The notes under the pieces are model-generated. The model was given only the letters and a program-made list of their open reading frames with translations, was not told where the DNA came from and searched no databases. The position numbers and the translations under genes were made by a program. Positions 2,378 to 12,434 of a DNA stretch of 12,434 bases are shown here, one piece after another (positions within the stretch are counted from its first letter, which is position 1; every line of letters begins with the position of its first letter). The stretch is taken from positions 1 to 12,434 of IMG/VR virus record IMGVR_UViG_3300045988_167490, one strand, 5' to 3'. The DNA is from a virus.

Positions 2378-2781
2378 TGAGAGAGTTTATTTTACATATG
2401 CAAGTTGTTTTATCTGTAATCGGAGCGTTTTTTGGTTGGTTCTTCGGCGGCGCTGACGGATTTCTATATGCGTTAATTGCATTTGTAATTATCGATTATG
2501 CAACAGGTGTTATAAATGCGATAATTTCTAAAGCGTTGTCAAGTGAAATTGGTTTTAAAGGAATTTGCAAAAAAGTAATGATTTTCATTTTAGTAGGTGT
2601 TGCACATTTAATTGATTTATTTATTTTGCAAGAAGGAACAGCTATTAGAACAGCAGTAATTTTCTTTTATCTTGCAAACGAGGGAATATCTATTCTTGAA
2701 AATTCAGCAAAAATTGGATTACCTATTCCGAAAAAATTAAAACAAATTCTCGCACAAATTAATAAAAGGAGTGGAGAATGA
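2377..2781 (+). CDS. Holin (phage_holin_4_1-type, as in Clostridia/Bacilli phages)
   Basis: The start is coupled to the previous stop (TAATG). There are four hydrophobic segments (VVLSVIGAFFGWFFGG; FLYALIAFVIIDYATGVINAI; VMIFILVGVAHLIDLFI; AVIFFYLANEGISIL). The conserved IDYxTG...KGxxKK...YxxNExxSIxEN..GxPxP pattern is characteristic of this holin family. Confidence 0.85.
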   Translation: MREFILHMQVVLSVIGAFFGWFFGGADGFLYALIAFVIIDYATGVINAIISKALSSEIGFKGICKKVMIFILVGVAHLIDLFILQEGTAIRTAVIFFYLANEGISILENSAKIGLPIPKKLKQILAQINKRSGE

Positions 2782-2782
2782 T

Positions 2783-3697
2783 ATGTCAAAAATTACAAAT
2801 AATGTCAGTCGAGGTTTGACCTCGACTGACGGATTTATTCATTACTTTAATATGCTGTATGATAAAGTATCAAATATGTTTGTATGGGAAAATTTACCAA
2901 AAAGCATTGATGTTAACTACTTAAACAGATGTTTATTTTTAAAAGGTCATTGTGCTTTTTTTAAATTAAACGGTAATTTTTATGTTGCAAACGGAGGCTT
3001 TGCAGGTGAGCCGAACGAGTATTATATGCCGTCGCAGTATATTATAGCTAACCCCGCATTGGGCAGTCATACATTTACAATTAACAAAGATTGTGTTATT
3101 TTGTATAATTCAGCTAAAGACATACAGTATAATGATTTTCCGATTTTGTCAGCTGCACGAGGCGGTTTATATTCTTTGATTTATCGAACAGCTATTTTAT
3201 TATCTGATAATGAATGTTCAATAAATGTAGCTCAAAAAAATTCGAGATTTTTTGCGTTTGCGTCAGCGGATACGGAAAACGCTTATAAAAGCGTATCAGA
3301 AGTATTTAAGAAAATTTACAACGGCGAGGAATTTGCAATAGCAAAGAGCGACATTGCAAGCACTATTTCTATATCACCGCTCGCAACAGGTGGCGGCTCT
3401 GTTAGTCCCACACTGCAAACATTAATTGATATTCAGCAATATTTTTTGGCACAATTTTATCACGCAATCGGCGTAAATTCTAATTTCAATATGAAAAAAG
3501 AAAGGCTCGTTAGTGACGAAATTGCTGTTAATGATACAGCGACAGAAGTTAATATCAATTCAATGTTAGAAATGAGGGAAAACAATGTTCAATCACTTAA
3601 TAATCTTTTCAATCTTAATTGTGACGTTGTTTTGTCTGATTTATGGAAACAAAAAACAATAGAAAAATCAGAAGAAAAAGAAGAAACGGAGGAATAA
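2783..3697 (+). CDS. Head-tail connector / portal (phi29 gp10 upper-collar-like)
   Basis: About 304 aa, against 309 aa for gp10. FIHYFNMLYDKVSNMFVWENLPKSIDVNYL matches gp10 [30 protein letters not shown], and NMKKERLVSDEIAVNDTATE matches [21 protein letters not shown]. ATG 2783 has GGAG 6 nt upstream. The track's GTG 2771 overlaps the holin gene. Confidence 0.9.
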   Translation: MSKITNNVSRGLTSTDGFIHYFNMLYDKVSNMFVWENLPKSIDVNYLNRCLFLKGHCAFFKLNGNFYVANGGFAGEPNEYYMPSQYIIANPALGSHTFTINKDCVILYNSAKDIQYNDFPILSAARGGLYSLIYRTAILLSDNECSINVAQKNSRFFAFASADTENAYKSVSEVFKKIYNGEEFAIAKSDIASTISISPLATGGGSVSPTLQTLIDIQQYFLAQFYHAIGVNSNFNMKKERLVSDEIAVNDTATEVNINSMLEMRENNVQSLNNLFNLNCDVVLSDLWKQKTIEKSEEKEETEE

Positions 3698-3700
3698 GCT

Positions 3701-4423
3701 TTGAGTTTATTATGCGGATATGATGAAGTTGAACTTGAAACACTTGAAGAGTTTGCAGAAAAAAACAAAGCTAATTTTGCTAATTTCTTTGATTATGCTA
3801 CAGATATAGCAACTCCGTTTGGTTTTTCAGTAACGGATTTATCAGATATGTTTTTAGAACTATACAAGTACAGATATATGATTATTGATTGCAATAAAAT
3901 TGCTGATTATAATACATATTACAAAAGAGCAAAAGTTGTATATAATCTTAACAAAAACAAATATATCAAACTTGTTGCTACTGAAACAGTTGAGTATAAT
4001 CCAATTGAGAATTACTCAATGATTGAAACCGGAAACGAAACAAGAACGCCAAACTTGACAAGGTCATCAGAGGGAACAGCAAGTGAAAGCGGCACTAATA
4101 GTGCTAATAACACAACAAGCAATACATCAACAGACAGCAATACAAGTTTTGATAGTACAGCTTTTGTTAATAATTCTAAAAATGAATTAACAGGCAATTC
4201 AAACACAACAGGCGAAAATACAGCTAAAAGCAACTCGACAGTTACTAGCAAGGAAACGGGAACAGAACAAACAACGAACGAACTGACACGAAAGGGCAAT
4301 ATAGGTGTTACAACAACACAACAAATGCTTGAGCAAGAAAGAGCGATTGCGGACTTTTCAACAATTAAAATATTTTTTGAAGATGTCGCAAAATTGCTTT
4401 TCTTTGATATTCTAAATTTATAA
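3701..4423 (+). CDS. Lower collar / tail tube adaptor (phi29 gp11-like)
   Basis: It lies immediately after the connector, as in phi29. TTG start with GGAGG 8 nt upstream. It has EYNPIENY and RKGNIGVTTTQQMLEQE motifs flanking a long Ser/Thr/Asn-rich stretch, which is the pattern I recall for gp11-type lower collar proteins. Confidence 0.6.
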   Translation: MSLLCGYDEVELETLEEFAEKNKANFANFFDYATDIATPFGFSVTDLSDMFLELYKYRYMIIDCNKIADYNTYYKRAKVVYNLNKNKYIKLVATETVEYNPIENYSMIETGNETRTPNLTRSSEGTASESGTNSANNTTSNTSTDSNTSFDSTAFVNNSKNELTGNSNTTGENTAKSNSTVTSKETGTEQTTNELTRKGNIGVTTTQQMLEQERAIADFSTIKIFFEDVAKLLFFDILNL

Positions 4424-4442
4424 CAGAAAGGAAATGAAAAAA

Positions 4443-5588
4443 ATGAAAGTTAAACAAATTGCGGAGATTTTAAACACAATTAATGCCGAAATTATTGGTG
4501 AGAGCGCAGTAGTTGCGGAGGATTTATCTAACATCGTTGATGTCGGTAAGGAAGTTATCGGTGCGGTTGACATTGAGAACTACACAAGGTCATTAATTGA
4601 CCGCGTCGGAAGAGTTGTGTTCTGGGATAGAACATACAATTCAACAGCACCGAATATTCTTAAAGACTCTTGGGAATTCGACTCCATTATGGAAAAAATC
4701 CGTTGTGAACTTCCCGATGTAGAGGAAAACCCGTCGTGGAAATTGACTAAAGGTCAGAGTTACGACCCATTTATTTTTAACCCACCAGCGGTAAAAGCAA
4801 AATTTTTCAACAGCAAGACAACATTTGAAATACCGATATCGTTTGTTGAAGAGCAGATAAAATCAGCTTTTACATCAGCAAGCGAAATGTCAAGATTTTT
4901 TGCTATGATTGAAAATCGTGTTATTATGAAAATGACGCTTTGCACTGATAGTATGATAATGCGCACTATTAACAACTTGATTGCTGAAAAGTTTGCGGCA
5001 AACAACAATGTTATTAATTTGCTCGCTGGCTACAATACAAAAATGGGAACTACATTGACAGCGGCTAAAGCATTAAGCGACAAAGAATTTTTACGCTATG
5101 CTTGCAAACAAATTAATCTTTACAGCGATTATTTGACAAGAGCGTCAATGCTCTTTAATGACAAAGGTTATGTCACATTTACACCAAAAGAAAACCAGAA
5201 AATCGTTATGCTTTCGGAGTTTGACAAGTCAGCAGAAGTTTATCTGTACTCTGATACATTCCATAACAGTTTTGTAAAACTTGACGGCTATACAACTGTT
5301 CCATATTGGCAGGGTTCAGGTACAGATGATAACTTCGATTTTGACGAAATCAGTAAAATTTCTGTAAAAACAGCAAGCGGAACTGACATTGAAAAAACAG
5401 GTATTATCGGTGTAATCTTTGACGAAAACGCTTGCGCTGTTTGTAACGAAAATCCTCGCACAACAAGTCAGTACAATGCTAAAGGCGAGTTTATCAACTA
5501 TTTTCATAAATGGGATTGCTCATATATCAATGATACAAACGAAAATTGCATTGTTTTTGTTGTCGAAGATACAACAGGCAAACCGTAA
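4443..5588 (+). CDS. Major capsid protein (phi29 gp8-like HK97 fold, without a C-terminal Ig-like domain)
   Basis: YTRSLIDRVGRVVF matches gp8 FITSLVDRIGLVVI, and GIIGVIFDENACAVCNENPRTTSQYNAKGEFINYFHKW matches [39 protein letters not shown]. It is followed by a hairpin terminator. The start is ambiguous: ATG 4443 is 10 nt from AAAGGA, while the track's ATG 4434 is only 1 nt from it. Confidence 0.82.
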   Translation: MKVKQIAEILNTINAEIIGESAVVAEDLSNIVDVGKEVIGAVDIENYTRSLIDRVGRVVFWDRTYNSTAPNILKDSWEFDSIMEKIRCELPDVEENPSWKLTKGQSYDPFIFNPPAVKAKFFNSKTTFEIPISFVEEQIKSAFTSASEMSRFFAMIENRVIMKMTLCTDSMIMRTINNLIAEKFAANNNVINLLAGYNTKMGTTLTAAKALSDKEFLRYACKQINLYSDYLTRASMLFNDKGYVTFTPKENQKIVMLSEFDKSAEVYLYSDTFHNSFVKLDGYTTVPYWQGSGTDDNFDFDEISKISVKTASGTDIEKTGIIGVIFDENACAVCNENPRTTSQYNAKGEFINYFHKWDCSYINDTNENCIVFVVEDTTGKP

Positions 5589-5591
5589 TCA

Positions 5592-5622
5592 AATGTTTCA
5601 CGTGAAACATTAAACAAAATCG
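5592..5622. repeat. Third, inverted copy of the palindrome-containing element
   Basis: AATGTTTCACGTGAAACATTAAACAAAATCG is the exact 31-nt reverse complement of 731-761. It starts 4 nt after the capsid stop codon and overlaps the first 2 nt of the terminator stem. Confidence 0.92.
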
Positions 5623-5646
5623 CCCTACAAAATTTCTTGTAGGGCG
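5621..5646 (+). terminator. GC-rich hairpin terminator downstream of the major capsid gene
   Basis: A 10-bp stem CGCCCTACAA/TTGTAGGGCG with loop AATTTC. The + strand tail is only ATAATTG. On the - strand the hairpin is followed by ATTTTGTTT, so it looks bidirectional or even better oriented for antisense. Confidence 0.6.
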
Positions 5647-5666
5647 ATAATTGAAAAGGTGATAAA

Positions 5667-6185
5667 ATGAAGGTAACATTATGCACTTTAACAGAAAACA
5701 GAAAAAACGCAGTTATAAAAACATTTACAGAAATTAAAACTATATCAGCGCAACAAATAGAGCAAATGACCGTTTCTGATTTGGAATGCACAATAGTTTT
5801 AAATTTCAATAATAGCATTTCAATGTTAACTAATAGTAATTTAGTAAATTATGCGCATATCAATTTAGAAAGAACTATTTACTATTTTATTGATAAAATC
5901 GAATTTTTGACGGGTAGTAGAATTGTACTACATCTTGTCGAGGATGTTTTAGCAACATATTCAGACGAAATTTTACAACTGAATTGTTTGATTACTCGAC
6001 AAGAAAACATCAAAAGCAATTTTATAGTTGATAATTTTTTACCGTTGAAAAATGAAAAAACAATAAAGGTTATTGATTTTGATAATTCAGAGTTTAATTT
6101 AAGTACAGCGACAAAAGACAGCTACAATTTTTTATTGACCGTTGCGGGAGGTGGCACAAATGGAACTCAACAGACAAATATATAA
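5667..6185 (+). CDS. Tail knob protein, N-terminal module (phi29 gp9 N-terminus-like), 172 aa
   Basis: SD AAGGTGA. IYYFIDKIEFLTGSRIVLHLVEDVLATYSDEILQLNCLITRQE aligns with gp9 [44 protein letters not shown] (from memory). It ends 26 nt inside the next ORF. Confidence 0.6.
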   Translation: MKVTLCTLTENRKNAVIKTFTEIKTISAQQIEQMTVSDLECTIVLNFNNSISMLTNSNLVNYAHINLERTIYYFIDKIEFLTGSRIVLHLVEDVLATYSDEILQLNCLITRQENIKSNFIVDNFLPLKNEKTIKVIDFDNSEFNLSTATKDSYNFLLTVAGGGTNGTQQTNI

Positions 6186-8301
6186 AACAGAAAATGATGT
6201 AAATTATAACGGTATAATTTTTAATACTAAAGGATTGAGCGAATATACAAACAGTGATGATTATAAATTCAATCAAGACTATAACAAAATGCCAGACATC
6301 TCATTTGCGTACGGAATGAGCAAAGGAAAATACTCGCCGCATTGCAATTTTGCAGTTGTTGCAACTAATCTGAATGTAAACCCAGATGTGAGTAAAATTC
6401 AGATTACAAAATATAATCAACCGTTCGCTTACTGTTTTTTGAATAGAGCGAAAGAGTTAATGCACAGTCCGTTTTTGCCTGTCGGGCTTTTTGGTAAGTA
6501 TCCAATCCGAACAACGGTAAGTACCGAAAACACTAATTTTACCTCGTGGGGCAAGGGTACACAAGGAACAGCACAACAAGCGGCGTTTTTTAGAAGTTTT
6601 GTTCCCGCTGTCAAATTTAATTATCAACAATTTGCTATTTGTCCCACTTTTGAGTGTAGTAGCACGATTGACTTGGCAATTCAAAAAAATACTGTCGGAG
6701 AGGTAAAAAGAAAACTTAATGAATTATCAGACGATTATAAATATATCAGTACTGTTAATATGTTAGGTACATATTATAACGGTGAGTCTGTTAGTGGTGC
6801 TAATCACGATGTTGCTGTTTCTGGTATCAATAACATAAAAATCATAACATATAAATCAAGCGGCATAACGGGTGTTGATATTGAACCCGATAATCAAGCA
6901 AAACCGGATATAAGTTTTGAACGATTAACAGTGCTCGGAAATTCTACGCCAATACGCTCAATAAACGAGTTAGCTGGCAAAACGATTAACACTGCTATTA
7001 GATGTCCAGAACCGTTCGAGATTTTAGCGAACAGTGACAAAGAATGGTTCGGAACTGTAGCGGCATATACAGAAAAAGAAAAATTTAAAAGATTAATAAG
7101 TTGTTACGGGTTAATTTGGTGTGACGATAAAGATTATATCGTTAGAGATTTAAACGAAAATACTATTAATGAACATTATTATATACCAATTCGCAACAGC
7201 GAAGGTTTTTATGTTGGCGATTACCTGCAAGGTGAAGAGGCAATCGACTATTTGAAAAAACACCCAGAACTCAACACCACAGACCAATGGCAAAAAAATA
7301 ACGGAGTTGTTATCAATCCCGATACACACGATTATACAAACGATATTGATTTAAATAAGCCCAATCTCTCAACAATCGGTGTTTTCAATCGTAGTTATGC
7401 TATGAATTTTAAGGATATTTTGTCATTATCTAATTATATGTGGAACAGTGACGATAATATATTTAATCAAATTGTCGAAAGTTTAAAGCTATTCGGTGAA
7501 AATCCTATAAACGCACTAATCAGCTTGCGTTTATATCCGTTCGACCTTGATAAAAAATTAGGTTCAACCGCAGTGGAAAAAATCAAACTCGGTAGAATTG
7601 TTACAGATGTTGACGGAAAAATATTACCAAATGACATAGACTGCGTTTTTGATTTGGGTTCAACCGATTTTCCGAATTACCACGATAATTTTTTAGATTA
7701 TTCACCGTATACCGATTGCGAGTTAATTATACCATATTGCGGTAATTTGACAATTCAACCGCAAGAATTTATCGGAAAAACATTATCAATTAAGTTAGTT
7801 GTTGACTTCAATTTAGGTGCTTGCACCGCTGTAATTTTTGCGGACGGTATTCCAAAGCTGTACAAAAGTGGCAACATTGGCGCAGAAGTTGCTATGAGTA
7901 GCAATATATCCGCCGATTATGGTAAAAATTGGTTAAATGCGAGCGTGGGGGCTGTATCTAATATATCGTCAATTGCAAGCGGTAATCTTGTAAGCGTTCT
8001 AGGCAGTGCAACCGATATAGCAAAATCGTACACTCAACCTACAATATTTCAAAATGTAGCTGGCAACTCCTCAACGGTTAACAATTGGTTACCGCAAAAG
8101 GCATATTTGATTATCAGAACATCAGAGAGCAACGAGCCCGAAAATTACGGTGCTACTGTCGGCTATGCGTGTAGTTTTAAAGAAAAATTGCAAAATTTGA
8201 GCGGTTATACAGTAGTCAGTAATCCGCAAATTTCGTTTAAATGCTCAAGTGCTGAAAATGACGAAATAAAAAGAATTTTGCAAAACGGTTTTTATATTTG
8301 A
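6160..8301 (+). CDS. Tail knob protein, main/C-terminal module (phi29 gp9-like) with a large extra central region
   Basis: ATG 6160 has GGGAGGTG (6146-6153) 6 nt upstream; the track's TTG 6142 is unlikely. The C-terminal third resembles gp9: YSPYTDCELIIPYCGNLTIQ vs MMYPYCVTEITDFKGNHMNL; a Gly/Ser/Ala-rich loop (SVGAVSNISSIASGNLVSVLGSA) like the gp9 membrane-active loop; SAENDEIKRILQNGFYI vs NNNDLQEIRTIFDNGITLW. Confidence 0.72.
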   Translation: MELNRQIYKTENDVNYNGIIFNTKGLSEYTNSDDYKFNQDYNKMPDISFAYGMSKGKYSPHCNFAVVATNLNVNPDVSKIQITKYNQPFAYCFLNRAKELMHSPFLPVGLFGKYPIRTTVSTENTNFTSWGKGTQGTAQQAAFFRSFVPAVKFNYQQFAICPTFECSSTIDLAIQKNTVGEVKRKLNELSDDYKYISTVNMLGTYYNGESVSGANHDVAVSGINNIKIITYKSSGITGVDIEPDNQAKPDISFERLTVLGNSTPIRSINELAGKTINTAIRCPEPFEILANSDKEWFGTVAAYTEKEKFKRLISCYGLIWCDDKDYIVRDLNENTINEHYYIPIRNSEGFYVGDYLQGEEAIDYLKKHPELNTTDQWQKNNGVVINPDTHDYTNDIDLNKPNLSTIGVFNRSYAMNFKDILSLSNYMWNSDDNIFNQIVESLKLFGENPINALISLRLYPFDLDKKLGSTAVEKIKLGRIVTDVDGKILPNDIDCVFDLGSTDFPNYHDNFLDYSPYTDCELIIPYCGNLTIQPQEFIGKTLSIKLVVDFNLGACTAVIFADGIPKLYKSGNIGAEVAMSSNISADYGKNWLNASVGAVSNISSIASGNLVSVLGSATDIAKSYTQPTIFQNVAGNSSTVNNWLPQKAYLIIRTSESNEPENYGATVGYACSFKEKLQNLSGYTVVSNPQISFKCSSAENDEIKRILQNGFYI

Positions 8302-8315
8302 GCAGGTGATTTTAA

Positions 8316-8990
8316 ATGAGTTATGCAAAATTAGATTATTCACTTGTTAAAGATTTAACAGTTGCAGACTTGCAACAGCTTATAAAGAAAGAAACATCTA
8401 TTGCTAATAAGCGACTGCGGCGACTGTATAATGCAAATTTGCAAAATCAAAGTGAGCAATATAATCAAGAATTTTCAGCGGCTCTTCATAACACTAACGG
8501 TTTTGGAACAAAAAGCGGTTATTTTTCATCAGCTACAAAAGAAAAGAGCAAACAACAATTAGTAACTCAATTTTTGCAAGTTAGAAATTTTTTAGCAAAT
8601 GATATTACAGTTACATCAGTAAAAAAAGAGCAGAAAGCAAGACAAACAAGTTTTGAACGAATTGAAACAATGAAAGCACAACGAAGTAAAAGAACACGAC
8701 CTAAAAAAATTTCAATCAAAAAAACTTTTGAATTTGTTGATAATCTGTTCACTGACTTAAAAAATATGGGATTTAATACAAATGTTCTCGGCAGTTTGTA
8801 CTCTGATATTTTAGCTATCACAAAATCAAGAATTGAGAGCGGCGAAAACTATTCAAGCATACTTGAAAGTATAGCAAATAGTATGAACTCATACGATTAT
8901 GATACAACAGCAATTCTAAACGATTTTTCAGAAAACGGTCGTTTACTTGTCAAATATGGCGATACTACATTCAAAAGAGAAGAGGAATAA
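8316..8990 (+). CDS. Candidate terminal protein (primer for DNA replication), 224 aa
   Basis: It lies immediately upstream of, and is translationally close-coupled to, the protein-primed polymerase (stop 8990, pol ATG 8993), as with phi29 gp3-gp2. The size is right for a terminal protein. It has a strongly basic patch, KAQRSKRTRPKKISIKK. I saw no direct sequence signature; the call rests on synteny. Confidence 0.5.
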   Translation: MSYAKLDYSLVKDLTVADLQQLIKKETSIANKRLRRLYNANLQNQSEQYNQEFSAALHNTNGFGTKSGYFSSATKEKSKQQLVTQFLQVRNFLANDITVTSVKKEQKARQTSFERIETMKAQRSKRTRPKKISIKKTFEFVDNLFTDLKNMGFNTNVLGSLYSDILAITKSRIESGENYSSILESIANSMNSYDYDTTAILNDFSENGRLLVKYGDTTFKREEE

Positions 8991-8992
8991 CA

Positions 8993-11161
8993 ATGTTGCA
9001 TTTTTCTGAATTTCCAAAGCAGAATTATAAATTTGATATTGTTACTAAGAAAACAAAAAAGCAAGAAATTGAATATTATAACACTGCATTTTCTTTTGAT
9101 ATTGAAACAACTAGCTTTTATTATGAGAACGGTTGTTCGATAATTCCAAAGACGAATGAAACAGAAAAATACAACAAAGCGGCAGTTATGTATATATGGC
9201 AATTTGGAGTAGGTCAAGATGTTTATTACGGTCGTACTTGGCAGGACTTTAAAGATTTTCTAATGATGTTAAAAGAATATTTCAATCTAAACAACAATAG
9301 AAAAATTATAATTTATGTACATAATTTAGCGTATGAATTTCAATTTTTAAGAAAAGAGTTCAACATCACAAATATGTTTGCTCGACAAGAGCGAAAACCG
9401 ATACACTTCACATTAAACGAATTTTTCGAGTTTAAATGTAGTTTTATGTTGAGTTGCTCAAGTCTTGAAACAATTGCAAAAAATTTAACAACAGTAAAAA
9501 TCAATAAAAAAATCGGTGACTTGAATTATAGATTATATCGTAATTCAAGTACACCGCTGACCTCAACCGAACTCGGCTACTGCGAATATGATATAAAAAT
9601 ACTGCAATACTATATCAGCGAAGAGATTGCATTAAATGAAAATAACATCTTAAACATACCACTGACAAAAACGGGTTACGTTAGAAGATTTTGCCGCAAC
9701 GCTTTGAAAGAAAACAATTATAAAAAATATCGTATGTTTATCAAAGATAACTCACCCGAAACAGAAGAGTTTATTTTACTTAACAAAATTTTTCAGGGCG
9801 GCTACACGCACGCAAATTGCAACTATGTAGGTTTAACTTTAAATGATGTTAGTAGCATTGACTTTACAAGTAGTTATCCGTCAGTAATGATTAGACATAA
9901 GTTTCCTATGCGAAAATTTAAGAAAATTGACATTATAGATTATGATACTTTTACAGAATTTATAAACAAATTTCCTTGCATTTTCGAAATTATGTTTACT
10001 AATCTAAAAGCGAAAACATCACATCACATCATACAAAGAGCAAAGTGCAGTGTTTGCACAAATGGTGTTTTCGATAACGGACGAATAATGCAAGCTGATA
10101 GTATTATAACATATTGCAATGATGTTGATTTTAAATGTATTCAAGATTTTTATACATATGACAGTATCACAATTAAAAATTTTTGGTACAGCAAATATGA
10201 GTATTTACCGAAAACAATTATTGAATGTATATTAAAGTTATACAACGATAAAACAATGTTAAAAGGTGTAGCAGGATATGAAAAAGAATATTTAATAAAA
10301 AAGGGTATGTTAAACAGTTCGTACGGAATGTGTGTTACCAATCCATGCAATGACGAAATTTCATATACAGAAAATTGGCAGAAAGAACGCAAAAGCATTG
10401 ACGAATGCTTAAAAGATAATAAATATAACTATAATCAATTTCTTTTGTATTCGTGGGGTGTTTGGGTGACATCTTGGGCAAGATATGAACTTTTTGACGG
10501 TATCAAAAATATTAATGAAGATGTTATTTATTCAGATACTGACAGCATTAAATTTTTAAATTTTGATAAACACAAAGAATATATAAACGCTTACAACAAG
10601 CGTGTTGCTAAAGAATTAAAACAGTGTTGTGATTTTTACAATATTGATTTTGAATTAACGCAACCCGAAAAAAGCGGAAAAAAATATCCGCTTGGCGTAT
10701 GGGATATTGAAAAAAGCTACACAAGGTTTAAAACGCTCGGAGCGAAAAGATATTGTTATCAGTACGCTGACGGCAGTGTAAACTTGACCGTATCGGGCAT
10801 TAATAAAAAATATGCAGTGCCTTATATGATGTCAGTATGTAACAATGATGTTAATAAGTTTTTTGATATGTTCAATTCAAATCTGAAAATACCAAAAGGC
10901 AAAACAGGAAAATTAACTCATACATATATTGATAATGAAATTAATGTTACTTTAGTTGACTATAATGGAAATTCAGAGATTGAAAACATTAAAAGTTGTA
11001 TTCACTTAGAAGATACAGAGTTTACATTGCAGATGTCAACTGAATTTTTGTCATTTTTGTGTGACTTTGTTTTTGACGAACTCGGAAACAATTTTTCATT
11101 AGGAATAAAGAGAGACGAACTTGCAATCACTTTTTTCGATAATTTTAGAAACGGAGTATAA
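8993..11161 (+). CDS. Protein-primed family-B DNA polymerase
   Basis: ExoI FSFDIETT; ExoII HNLAYEF; SLETIAKNL; ExoIII YCEYDIKIL; motif A IDFTSSYPS (Dx2SLYP); motif B KKGMLNSSYG (Kx3NSxYG); GVWVTSWARYELF (cf. phi29 GVFITAWARYTTI); motif C IYSDTDSIKF; KxY GAKRYCY. SD AGAGGA lies 6 nt upstream. Confidence 0.96.
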   Translation: MLHFSEFPKQNYKFDIVTKKTKKQEIEYYNTAFSFDIETTSFYYENGCSIIPKTNETEKYNKAAVMYIWQFGVGQDVYYGRTWQDFKDFLMMLKEYFNLNNNRKIIIYVHNLAYEFQFLRKEFNITNMFARQERKPIHFTLNEFFEFKCSFMLSCSSLETIAKNLTTVKINKKIGDLNYRLYRNSSTPLTSTELGYCEYDIKILQYYISEEIALNENNILNIPLTKTGYVRRFCRNALKENNYKKYRMFIKDNSPETEEFILLNKIFQGGYTHANCNYVGLTLNDVSSIDFTSSYPSVMIRHKFPMRKFKKIDIIDYDTFTEFINKFPCIFEIMFTNLKAKTSHHIIQRAKCSVCTNGVFDNGRIMQADSIITYCNDVDFKCIQDFYTYDSITIKNFWYSKYEYLPKTIIECILKLYNDKTMLKGVAGYEKEYLIKKGMLNSSYGMCVTNPCNDEISYTENWQKERKSIDECLKDNKYNYNQFLLYSWGVWVTSWARYELFDGIKNINEDVIYSDTDSIKFLNFDKHKEYINAYNKRVAKELKQCCDFYNIDFELTQPEKSGKKYPLGVWDIEKSYTRFKTLGAKRYCYQYADGSVNLTVSGINKKYAVPYMMSVCNNDVNKFFDMFNSNLKIPKGKTGKLTHTYIDNEINVTLVDYNGNSEIENIKSCIHLEDTEFTLQMSTEFLSFLCDFVFDELGNNFSLGIKRDELAITFFDNFRNGV

Positions 11162-11164
11162 ACA

Positions 11165-12250
11165 ATGAAGTATTACAGTTTAAAAAATATTGATAAAAAA
11201 CAAGCCGAATATAACGTCATAATCGGTAAAAGAAGTAACGGAAAAACATACTCTGTATGTGATAAATCACTTAGAGAACATTACAAATCAGGAAAACGGC
11301 TTGCATATATCAGACGATACGCAGAAGATATTACACCGAAATTTATAAAAAAGCTGTTTGCACCACACGATTTGGAAAGTATCACGGCAGGCAAGTGGAA
11401 TTACATACGATATTATAACAGAGGATTTTATTTTGCTAAAATAGAAGATAATAAAATTATTGATTGCGAAGTAGAACCGTTTTGTCAAACGTTTGCGTTG
11501 AATGTTTGGGAAAGCGCAAAAGGAGCTGATAACGGATATTTTGATTATATTTTATTTGACGAATTTATCACAAGAGGACACTATTTAGCAGATGAATTTA
11601 TCATATTTTGTAATGTGCTTTCTTCCGTGTTGCGTGACCGTGACGGCACAAAAATATATATGCTTGCTAATACAATCAACAAATATTGCATATATTTTTC
11701 CGAAATGGGTATTAATGATGTTGAGAATATGCAACAAGGCGAAATTAAAGTTTATCCGTTCGGATATGGTAATGAGAAGTTGCAGATAGCAGTTGAATAC
11801 TGTTCAGATACAGATAATACTAAAAAAGTAAGTAAGTATTTTGCGTTCACAAATCCACGCACAAAAATGATTACGGAGGGAAAATGGGAGATTAAAAACT
11901 ATCCACATATTCCAAAAAATATTACTTCTGATAATATTATATATAAAGCGTTTGTTTTTTTCAATCATAAATTTATGTGTGTAAATATTTGTGAAAAAAA
12001 CTCCGAAGTGTTTTTGACTGTACATATGCAAACAAAAGAATTTAATTCAGATAATATCATTTTTGATTTTACACCAAACACCAAAACAAATTATTTTATA
12101 AATCTGAATGTTTGCGATAACAAAATCGGATTGCTGATTAGAAATTTAATAAACAAGCAAAAAATTTTTTATGCCAGCAATGAAGTCGGCGAATTATTCC
12201 GCAATTGGATTTTAGAGCAATCAAAAACGCAACAAATATTTTTGAGTTGA
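11165..12250 (+). CDS. DNA encapsidation (packaging) ATPase, phi29 gp16-like
   Basis: Walker A NVIIGKRSNGKTYS (gp16 NFVIGARGIGKSYA); LAYIRRY (FIYVRRY); Walker B YILFDEFI (TIVFDEFI); YMLANTINKYCIYF (CLSNAVSVVNPYF). SD GGAG lies 8 nt upstream. It is the last gene before the right ITR. Confidence 0.9.
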   Translation: MKYYSLKNIDKKQAEYNVIIGKRSNGKTYSVCDKSLREHYKSGKRLAYIRRYAEDITPKFIKKLFAPHDLESITAGKWNYIRYYNRGFYFAKIEDNKIIDCEVEPFCQTFALNVWESAKGADNGYFDYILFDEFITRGHYLADEFIIFCNVLSSVLRDRDGTKIYMLANTINKYCIYFSEMGINDVENMQQGEIKVYPFGYGNEKLQIAVEYCSDTDNTKKVSKYFAFTNPRTKMITEGKWEIKNYPHIPKNITSDNIIYKAFVFFNHKFMCVNICEKNSEVFLTVHMQTKEFNSDNIIFDFTPNTKTNYFINLNVCDNKIGLLIRNLINKQKIFYASNEVGELFRNWILEQSKTQQIFLS

Positions 12251-12290: not shown

Positions 12291-12332
12291 GGTAGGTTTT
12301 ATGCTTTAGCACTTTAGCATATTAAACCTACC
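12291..12332. repeat. Right-end-specific imperfect hairpin straddling the ITR boundary
   Basis: GGTAGGTTT (12291-12299) pairs with AAACCTACC (12324-12332), and TATGCT (12300-12305) pairs with AGCATA (12316-12321). The loop TTAGCACTTT contains an extra copy of the ITR 8-mer. It reuses the CCTACC that forms the loop of the ITR hairpin, so the two folds exclude each other. Confidence 0.75.
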
Positions 12333-12424
12333 TTTTTAATATGCTTTAACGCTTTAGCACTTTAGCACTTTAGCACTTTAGCACACTAAAGCGGGGAGCG
12401 GCAAAGTTTGTTAAAAGTTTAACA
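12314..12424. repeat. Right inverted terminal repeat (ITR)
   Basis: Exact reverse complement of 11-121. It mirrors the 8-bp tandem array (12345-12384) and the hairpin (12317-12344). Confidence 0.93.
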
Positions 12425-12434
12425 AGATCGGAAG
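12425..12434. other. Illumina adapter remnant (AGATCGGAAG); not biological sequence
   Basis: AGATCGGAAG is the start of the standard adapter read-through sequence AGATCGGAAGAGC. Confidence 0.85.

Follow-up and report, generated by a model that had tools for sequence, protein, structure and literature searches.

A tail knob probably encoded by two overlapping genes in a 12.4-kb phi29-like podophage genome

The DNA analyzed here, referred to as the window, is the whole 12,434-nt stretch of IMG/VR record IMGVR_UViG_3300045988_167490. The MCP gene (4434-5588) is directly followed by two overlapping open reading frames on the plus strand. ORF1 (5667..6185, plus strand) starts with ATG and encodes 172 aa, and ORF2 (6160..8301, plus strand) encodes 713 aa from its ATG start codon at 6160..6162 (plus strand). 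The two overlap by 26 nt (6160..6185, plus strand), and ORF2 lies in the +1 frame, as (6160-5667) mod 3 = 1. A TGA at 6136-6138 closes this frame, which is then open from 6139 onward; the longer listed form of the +1-frame ORF starts at TTG 6142 and ends at 8301. A putative Shine-Dalgarno (SD) sequence of ORF2, GGGAGGTG, is located within ORF1 at 6146..6153 (plus strand), and a 6-nt spacer separates it from ATG 6160. These coordinates agree with an earlier annotation made from the letters alone (the sequence-only reading). In the ORF1 frame, GGGAGGTG codes for the Gly-Gly of a conserved C-terminal ...AGG motif, and the last ~9 codons of ORF1, past ...LTVAGGG, form an unconstrained extension.

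Searches at the level of both sequence and fold connected ORF1 with the N-terminal region of tail knobs. Against PHROGs, ORF1 matched phrog_2248 ("tail protein") at positions 55-133 of 590 (E 7.5e-5). When a profile of the ORF1 family was compared with the PDB (177,635 sequences), the top two matches were 4EO2 (phage C1 gp12, E 0.0068) and 5FB4 (phi29 gp9, E 0.05), both of which are tail knobs and are matched in the equivalent N-terminal region. BLASTP paired ORF1 69-113 with gp9 88-132 (E 0.004), and a phmmer search of ORF1 against the PDB returned nothing, even at E 10. The AF2 model of ORF1 is confident over residues 1-110, and the top five PDB matches obtained with it in Foldseek were phi29 gp9 chains (probability 0.99-1.00); in addition, the matches in a BFVD search include knob or tail proteins of Cp-1, SOCP and Nf. 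These results, consistent across sequence-profile and fold searches, indicate that ORF1 is remotely homologous to the tail-tube-like domain at the N-terminus of phi29 gp9 and C1 gp12. The sequence-only reading had recognized this resemblance and had overestimated its extent, since the gp9 span matched by ORF1 is about residues 1-135 and not the first ~185.

ORF2 is composed of two parts, a lineage-specific module (residues ~1-405; 6160..7374, plus strand) and a conserved C-terminal core of the knob (residues ~406-713; 7375..8298, plus strand). The homologous core, which begins only at residues ~406-450, is common to gp10 of Acinetobacter phage Phanie (residues 594-852; probability 96.9%, E 1.6e-10) and to the single-chain protein of phage AD70P2, of which residues 186-439 align with ORF2 449-713 (probability 98.2%, E 3.9e-14). 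A direct hhalign comparison of ORF2 593-713 with gp9 438-582 was collinear but weak (P 0.003, probability 10%). A Gly/Ala/Ser-rich hydrophobic stretch of ORF2 (residues 593-625; 7936..8034, plus strand) aligns with gp9 438-470, which is likewise rich in Gly/Ala/Ser, and pairs with AD70P2 as well. From these alignments we infer a candidate equivalent of the pore-forming L loop of gp9, a loop mentioned for phi29 in PMC6542822. The sequence-only reading had supposed that ORF2 resumes the gp9 alignment where ORF1 ends, which is not the case: ~400 unrelated residues intervene, and the accompanying pairing of NKMPDISFAY with NGMPQPLCYY is absent from every alignment and was not recovered by BLASTP.

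Neither single-chain knobs nor short split forms contain the ~400-aa module. It sits where Phanie and Astrid carry a described Ig-like insert, and similarity between the module and those inserts was not detectable. Searches of Pfam and PHROGs with ORF2 and with its N-terminal 413 aa gave no match, apart from a GH3_M match below threshold that was regarded as chance. Similarly, a phmmer search of ORF2 against the PDB found nothing, even at E 10, the ORF2-family profile had no match in the PDB, and a profile built from four fused forms gave nothing significant against the PDB and gp9. The AF2 model of ORF2, derived from a 15-sequence alignment, had a pLDDT of 45 and was unusable, and its Foldseek matches in the PDB (best E 0.33) were discarded as noise.

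Known single-chain knobs, namely, phi29 gp9 (PDB 5FB4, 5FB5, 5FEI), streptococcal phage C1 gp12 (4EO2) and that of Andhra (8EGS), are each one polypeptide of ~580-600 aa, compared with 172 + 713 aa here. The N-terminal tail-tube-like domain of these proteins is matched by ORF1, whereas ORF2 has no significant direct sequence match to them; here as in those phages, the gene adjoins the capsid gene. The closest fused counterparts are WAX05393.1 of Amedibacillus phage AD70P2 (Guelinviridae), with 439 aa, and a 465-aa ORF of MT836155, in which the N-terminus aligns with the whole of ORF1 and both parts are carried in one chain without the ~400-aa insert. The MCPs of these two are just 28-32% identical to that of the window. 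Two further loci, L017 and L031, likewise carry both knob parts in one insert-free chain. Because all four fuse them, the ORF1-like and ORF2-like parts belong to one structure.

Such fusions bear on the possibility that ORF1 is a neck, head-tail adaptor or stopper protein sharing a tail-tube-like fold, with the knob being built from ORF2 alone. In Foldseek searches with the ORF1 model, siphovirus and myovirus proteins of the head-tail adaptor, stopper and neck types indeed appeared at scores similar to those of the knobs. We consider this explanation decidedly unlikely, since AD70P2, MT836155, L017 and L031 join the ORF1-like domain covalently to an ORF2-like C-terminal core, and phi29 gp9 and C1 gp12, the best PDB matches, carry the equivalent domain as their own N-terminus. 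Moreover, the C-part gene lies directly downstream of the ORF1-type (N-part) gene in every split genome compared.

The junction of the two genes was compared among 32 split genomes, which comprise the clade of the window and 27 more distant genomes. The clade is represented by five independent assemblies, the four others having been obtained from ENA, Logan (two) and NCBI. In these four close relatives, the proteins are 63-95% identical, the junction nucleotides differ and the same two ORFs are present. The split is also found in the 27 more distant genomes, some of them from cultured phages (Phanie, Astrid, Shigella vB_SHGBLB0004 and Vibrio K58 g2). At all 32 loci, the C-part starts with an ATG or GTG of its own that is located -32 to +16 nt from the ORF1 stop and is preceded by an SD-like motif. 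The frame of ORF2 relative to ORF1 is +1 in 19 genomes, +2 in nine and 0 in four, and in the frame-0 cases an in-frame stop separates the two genes. The overlap is kept in the clade of the window and, at 26-32 nt, is the longest of the 32 junctions.

Substitutions among the five assemblies of the clade localize the transition between the two genes. The codon at the position of 6160 is ATG in L010 and GTG in L009, L007 and L008, and this exchange is the sole start-codon change in the clade. Over the 61 nt 5' of the start codon, reading in the ORF1 frame makes 11 of 13 substitutions synonymous, versus 2 of 12 for the ORF2 frame. In the overlap, all four substitutions are synonymous when read in the ORF2 frame and none is when read in the ORF1 frame. 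The start codon is the point at which, in close relatives, the frame under selection changes from that of ORF1 to that of ORF2. In addition, the position of the ORF1 stop is shifted in L007, and in L008 a +1-frame TAA directly precedes the GTG start. This comparative evidence supports the view that each gene has its own translation start and that two polypeptides would be produced, as the sequence-only reading had argued from the SD and as is reported for related phages.

The same reading had also entertained a programmed +1 frameshift within 6139-6185, stimulated by the SD as in prfB, which would generate a fused knob of ~880 aa as the sole or a minor product. There is a likeness to prfB in the strong SD-like sequence within the upstream ORF and in the downstream ORF being in the +1 frame, here with a 26-nt overlap, and the +1 arrangement recurs in 19 of the 32 split genomes. 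However, unlike in prfB, ORF2 has a conserved independent start and the frame relation is not conserved, being +2 or 0 in the other 13. The ATG-GTG exchange is the only change at the position of 6160, which is the behavior of a start codon and not of a slip site, and, because of the TAA in L008, any shift would fall at or after the start codon. In the prfB element, a stop codon or a slowly translated one is needed about 3 nt past the SD, whereas the 0-frame stop here lies 30 nt beyond it; at ~3 nt from the SD neither a stop nor a hungry codon is present, and inspection of 6139-6185 revealed no recognizable slippery motif. The ORF1 homologues retrieved are all 155-174 aa long and the ORF2 homologues all 689-771 aa, none of them being fused, and no homologue of the fused length of ~880 aa emerged when 5.8 billion and 1.84 billion proteins were searched. 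An exhaustive search with the N-part profile retrieved 3,580 cluster representatives (50%-identity clusters, E <= 0.001), and the best 150 of them are nearly all stand-alone proteins of 145-175 aa. ORF1/ORF2 neither works like prfB nor belongs to the prfB class, and we judge a programmed frameshift to be highly improbable.

Least probable of all is that a single gp9-like gene was split by an assembly or sequencing error of one base or by a recent pseudogenizing indel. All that favors this is that indels in metagenome assemblies are plausible a priori. It is excluded because four other independent assemblies that differ in sequence keep the junction and 27 more distant genomes are split too, and joining the frames would not give back a gp9-like chain because ~400 unrelated residues separate the homologous parts.

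In 2024, the knob of the Phanie/Astrid group was reported to be "encoded by two genes", and 6+6 complexes were modelled (PMC11476376). Its members, as named there, include Acinetobacter phage Phanie (gp9 + gp10; Pourcel et al. 2024 J Virol, as cited by Evseev et al. 2024, PMC11476376) and Salmonella phage Astrid (ORF009 + ORF010), with DU_PP_III, a Pectobacterium phage, and MAG 2692_55609 as further members (PMC11476376). The AF3 6+6 models were published for Astrid and DU_PP_III only, and HHpred support for homology to the C-terminal region of gp9 was published for the C-terminus of Phanie gp10 (PMC11476376).

The window resembles these phages in several respects. Its MCP is 40-47% identical to those of Phanie, Astrid, DU_PP_III and the Shigella and Vibrio phages, and the gene order is as in Phanie and Astrid (portal, small gene, MCP, N-part of ~150-170 aa, large C-part). 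As in those two, the genome is of the linear type of ~11-12 kb with terminal repeats. The ORF1 family and Phanie gp9 are homologous (hhalign probability 96.9%, E 1.8e-10, 134 columns) and share a terminal ...T(V/T)(A/V)GG motif, and in both ORF2 and Phanie gp10 a variable insert precedes the homologous C-terminal core. Differences were observed at the junction, which has a 26-nt overlap and frame +1 here versus a 1-nt overlap (TAATG) and frame +2 in Phanie and Astrid, and after the knob genes, where a Phage_holin_4_1 holin is found without a recognizable endolysin, in contrast to the amidase or CHAP gene of Phanie and Astrid; the G+C content of 29-35% is a further difference. ORF1 and ORF2 belong to this already described Astrithrvirus-like two-gene knob layout, which is widespread in relatives. 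Host assignment from MAG bins was also attempted and was rejected, since related contigs of ~12-13 kb were binned with Clostridia, Alphaproteobacteria, Bacteroidales, Succinimonas and Methanobrevibacter and were evidently mis-binned.

We therefore propose, with a probability of about 0.9 and on the basis of comparative sequence analysis, that ORF1 and ORF2 are separate, translationally coupled genes that jointly encode the knob of a ~12.4-kb protein-primed phi29-like podophage. ORF1, the "minor" or N-part subunit, would form the proximal ring through a tail-tube-like domain of the kind that single-chain knobs, for example phi29 gp9, have as their N-terminus. ORF2, the "major" or C-part subunit, would form the distal part of the knob, with its conserved core of ~300 aa following the ~400-aa lineage-specific module, which is probably exposed laterally on the tail. 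Initiation of ORF2 at ATG 6160 would be directed by GGGAGGTG inside the end of ORF1, and ribosomes translating ORF1 would stop 26 nt past this start; a short overlap of this kind, typical of coupled phage structural genes, may favor equal amounts of both subunits. That the complex is 6+6 and that the insert lies laterally are inferred by analogy with the AlphaFold models published for Astrid and DU_PP_III and with the phi29 structure.

Two extensions of the two-gene model are more speculative. Phanie virions are described as infectious only after attaching to the tail of a helper myophage, and no recognizable tail fibre or endolysin was found in the genome studied here. The ORF2 module could accordingly be imagined as a docking device like that of Phanie and not as an ordinary surface binder, in which case an abundant family of ~12-kb gut podophages could be helper-dependent; we regard this as unlikely. 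Still less likely is a low-level +1 fusion product specific to the clade with the 26-32-nt overlap.

For annotation, the pair should be labelled as two tail-knob subunits (N-part and C-part) and should not be merged, "corrected" or flagged as a frameshift. Three comparative points can be added to the published description, and they leave the picture of how such tails work unchanged. First, the stand-alone N-part constitutes a very large metagenomic family, as reflected by its 3,580 clusters. Second, splitting of the knob and insertion of the module are separable events, because split forms without any insert exist. Third, since low-G+C, SD-using genomes with Phage_holin_4_1 possess it, the split may not be confined to phages of Gram-negative hosts, a restriction that had been suggested.

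Directly after the capsid gene, the plus strand of the window carries ORF1 (5667-6185, 172 aa) and ORF2 (6160-8301, 713 aa from ATG 6160), which overlap by 26 nt. The +1 frame of ORF2 is open from 6139, and a Shine-Dalgarno (SD) sequence (GGGAGGTG, 6146-6153, plus strand) lies 6 nt 5' of the ATG; a re-check of the window's ORFs found all the coordinates of the sequence-only reading to be correct. Junctions were compared at the DNA level in the window's four close relatives (L007-L010, from independent projects), distant metagenomic relatives, cultured phages and 21 contigs from MAG collections, and the genes matching the N-terminal part (N-part) and the C-terminal part (C-part) of a single-chain tail knob were located by HMMs in the fetched genomes. 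The knob is split in 32 of the genomes compared, and in 32/32 the C-part has its own start codon, ATG or GTG with an SD-like motif 5' of it, positioned from 32 nt before the final base of the N-part stop to 16 nt beyond it. The relative frame of the C-part is +1 in 19 genomes, +2 in nine, including Acinetobacter phage Phanie and Salmonella phage Astrid (TAATG), and 0 in four, where an in-frame stop separates the two parts. Both genes share one frame in the more distant L022, L033, L037 and L006, kept apart by a single stop codon plus 0-4 sense codons. In addition, many N-parts end in a Gly-Gly encoded by the following gene's SD, which makes this motif dual-use.

Within the window's clade, 11/13 substitutions in the 61 nt preceding the start codon are synonymous when read in the ORF1 frame, versus 2/12 in the ORF2 frame. 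All four overlap substitutions are synonymous for ORF2 and non-synonymous for ORF1, and the start codon itself changes solely between ATG and GTG. Selection thus switches frame at the start codon, and the final ~8 codons of ORF1 are unconstrained; in L007, one overlap substitution abolishes the ORF1 stop and lengthens ORF1 by two codons. The proposal of a knob made of two polypeptides by independent initiation thus holds, in view of the start codon and SD in every split genome, the variable frames and the switch in selection. A programmed +1 frameshift like that of prfB, also proposed from the sequence, was rejected, since recoding would need a fixed frame relation, and the observed variation is that of independent genes with translational coupling. 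A defining feature of the prfB site, a slow or stop codon some 3 nt past the SD, is missing from the window junction, where the ORF1 stop comes 30 nt after the SD; in the close relative L008, moreover, a +1-frame TAA directly abuts the GTG start. The suggestion of a one-base assembly error was discarded because L007-L010 and the other genomes are split as well.

The resemblance of ORF1 to the N-terminus of phi29 gp9, as first read from the sequence, was borne out, as a remote similarity, by several methods. A plain sequence search of ORF1 and ORF2 against solved structures gave no match, and ORF1 matched PHROG 2248 ("tail protein") weakly, at positions 55-133 of 590. With a profile of ORF1 relatives, the two best PDB matches were tail knobs, gp12 of the streptococcal phage C1 (4EO2, E 0.0068) and phi29 gp9 (5FB4, E 0.05), both aligned in the equivalent N-terminal stretch; hhalign and BLASTP aligned gp9 84-132 with ORF1 66-113. 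For the AF2 model of ORF1 (confident over 1-110), the top five PDB matches were all chains of phi29 gp9; C1 gp12 and the Andhra knob were matched too, and in BFVD the model matched uncharacterised podovirus proteins of ~450-670 aa and tail or knob proteins of Cp-1, SOCP and Nf. In a collection of 5.8 billion proteins, ORF1 homologues are all 155-174 aa and ORF2 homologues all 689-771 aa. An exhaustive HMM search with the ORF1 family over 1.84 billion cluster representatives returned 3,580 proteins at E <= 0.001 (407 at E <= 1e-10), and nearly all of the best 150 are stand-alone proteins of 145-175 aa. Three long outliers of the N-part family, P0115 (3463 aa, ten stretches matched by the HMM), P0175 (573 aa) and P0178 (358 aa), the latter two with the domain C-terminal, may reflect mistaken gene calls or fusions of another kind.

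For ORF2, no Pfam or PHROG family was found, Foldseek matches of its AF2 model (pLDDT 45) were noise, and the claim that it resumes the gp9 alignment at residue ~48 was not recovered by search. Gp9 438-582 matched ORF2 593-713 weakly (P 0.003, probability 10%), yet collinearly. Within this match, a Gly/Ala/Ser-rich hydrophobic stretch of ORF2 lies opposite a similar stretch of gp9, at the position of the pore-forming L loop, and is a candidate counterpart of that loop. The existence of a gp9 L loop is documented (PMC6542822). Some relatives have a single chain: in the Amedibacillus phage AD70P2 (Guelinviridae), the first ~160 residues of one 439-aa protein align with all of ORF1, and residues 186-439 with ORF2 449-713 (probability 98.2%, E 3.9e-14). 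Similarly, a single 465-aa ORF of MT836155 is ORF1-like at 9-156 and then at once ORF2-core-like at 163-464, and the genomes L017 and L031 are also single-chain. A single ancestral knob chain is thus represented in the window by ORF1 together with the final ~300 residues of ORF2, and ORF2 ~1-405 is extra relative to it. Splitting and insertion are separable, as L022 (2407-3981), L032, L036 and L037, related ~13-kb contigs, are split with an insert-free C-part of only ~330-350 aa.

The window is the linear genome of a small phi29-like podophage, presumably protein-primed. Its completeness is shown by inverted terminal repeats, a perfect 121 bp each (1-121 and 12314-12434), which contain tandem 8-bp units GTGCTAAA at about 51-92. 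The large ORFs all lie on the plus strand, and family matches identified a holin (Phage_holin_4_1, 2377-2781), the portal (Phage_connector, 2771-3697), the capsid gene (Phi29_MCP, 4434-5588), a protein-primed type-B DNA polymerase (8993-11161) and a gp16-type packaging ATPase (11165-12250). Two ORFs without a family match are candidates by synteny with Astrid and Phanie: a lower collar after the portal (3701-4423, 240 aa, Ser/Thr/Asn-rich centre) and a terminal protein just before the polymerase (8316-8990, 224 aa). A 151-aa protein (781-1236) contains the crAss001_48-related domain PF21825 (E 4.8e-17), common to crAss-like gut phages, and also matches several function-unknown PHROGs. A 31-nt perfect inverted repeat, with the 16-bp palindrome TGTTTCACGTGAAACA as its core, links two intergenic sites separated by 4.8 kb: the first (731-761; also 695-730) precedes ORF 781, and the second (5592-5622) lies in the gap from the MCP stop to the ORF1 start. 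It looks like an operator, possibly for the HTH/sigma-r4 protein at 1233-1544. Between the capsid gene and ORF1, a hairpin with a 13-bp stem (5619-5648) has a 3' T-run only on the minus strand, even though every gene reads on the plus strand; placed before the knob genes, this hairpin may stabilise the RNA or act in attenuation. Family searches of the whole genome recognised a holin and no endolysin or tail fibre/spike gene. In Phanie and Astrid an amidase or CHAP gene directly follows the knob genes, whereas the next gene in the window is 8316-8990; ORF2 1-405 or the small unassigned ORFs may conceal a lytic or receptor-binding activity.

A two-gene knob has been described, one protein resembling the N-terminal part of p9 (gp9) and the other, which carries Ig-like domain insertions in varying number, its C-terminal part, together with AF3 6+6 models (Evseev et al., 2024, PMC11476376), who credited the first observation to Pourcel et al. 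(2024). In the known phages compared, the portal gene is followed by a small gene, the MCP gene, a gene of ~147 aa and a large gene, which is also the gene order of the window, with ORF1 (172 aa) in fourth place. The ORF1 family matches Phanie gp9, annotated "putative tail knob protein", up to its C-terminal ...TVGG motif (E 1.8e-10), and ORF2 406-713 matches the C-terminus of Phanie gp10 (E 1.6e-10). Thus, the split knob of the window is another case of this arrangement. The 29-35% G+C, strong SDs and Phage_holin_4_1 holin hint that the host lies beyond the Gram-negative groups considered to date. Related whole phi29-like genomes of ~12-13.5 kb (L018-L038) are binned in Clostridia, Candidatus Enterousia, Bacteroidales, Succinimonas and Methanobrevibacter MAGs, a pattern suggestive of small phage contigs being mis-binned in public MAG collections, and a host call from these bins was dropped as too inconsistent. 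The value of the finding lies chiefly in correct annotation; its additions to the published picture are the insert-free split forms, the dual-use Gly-Gly/SD motif and a possible non-Gram-negative host.
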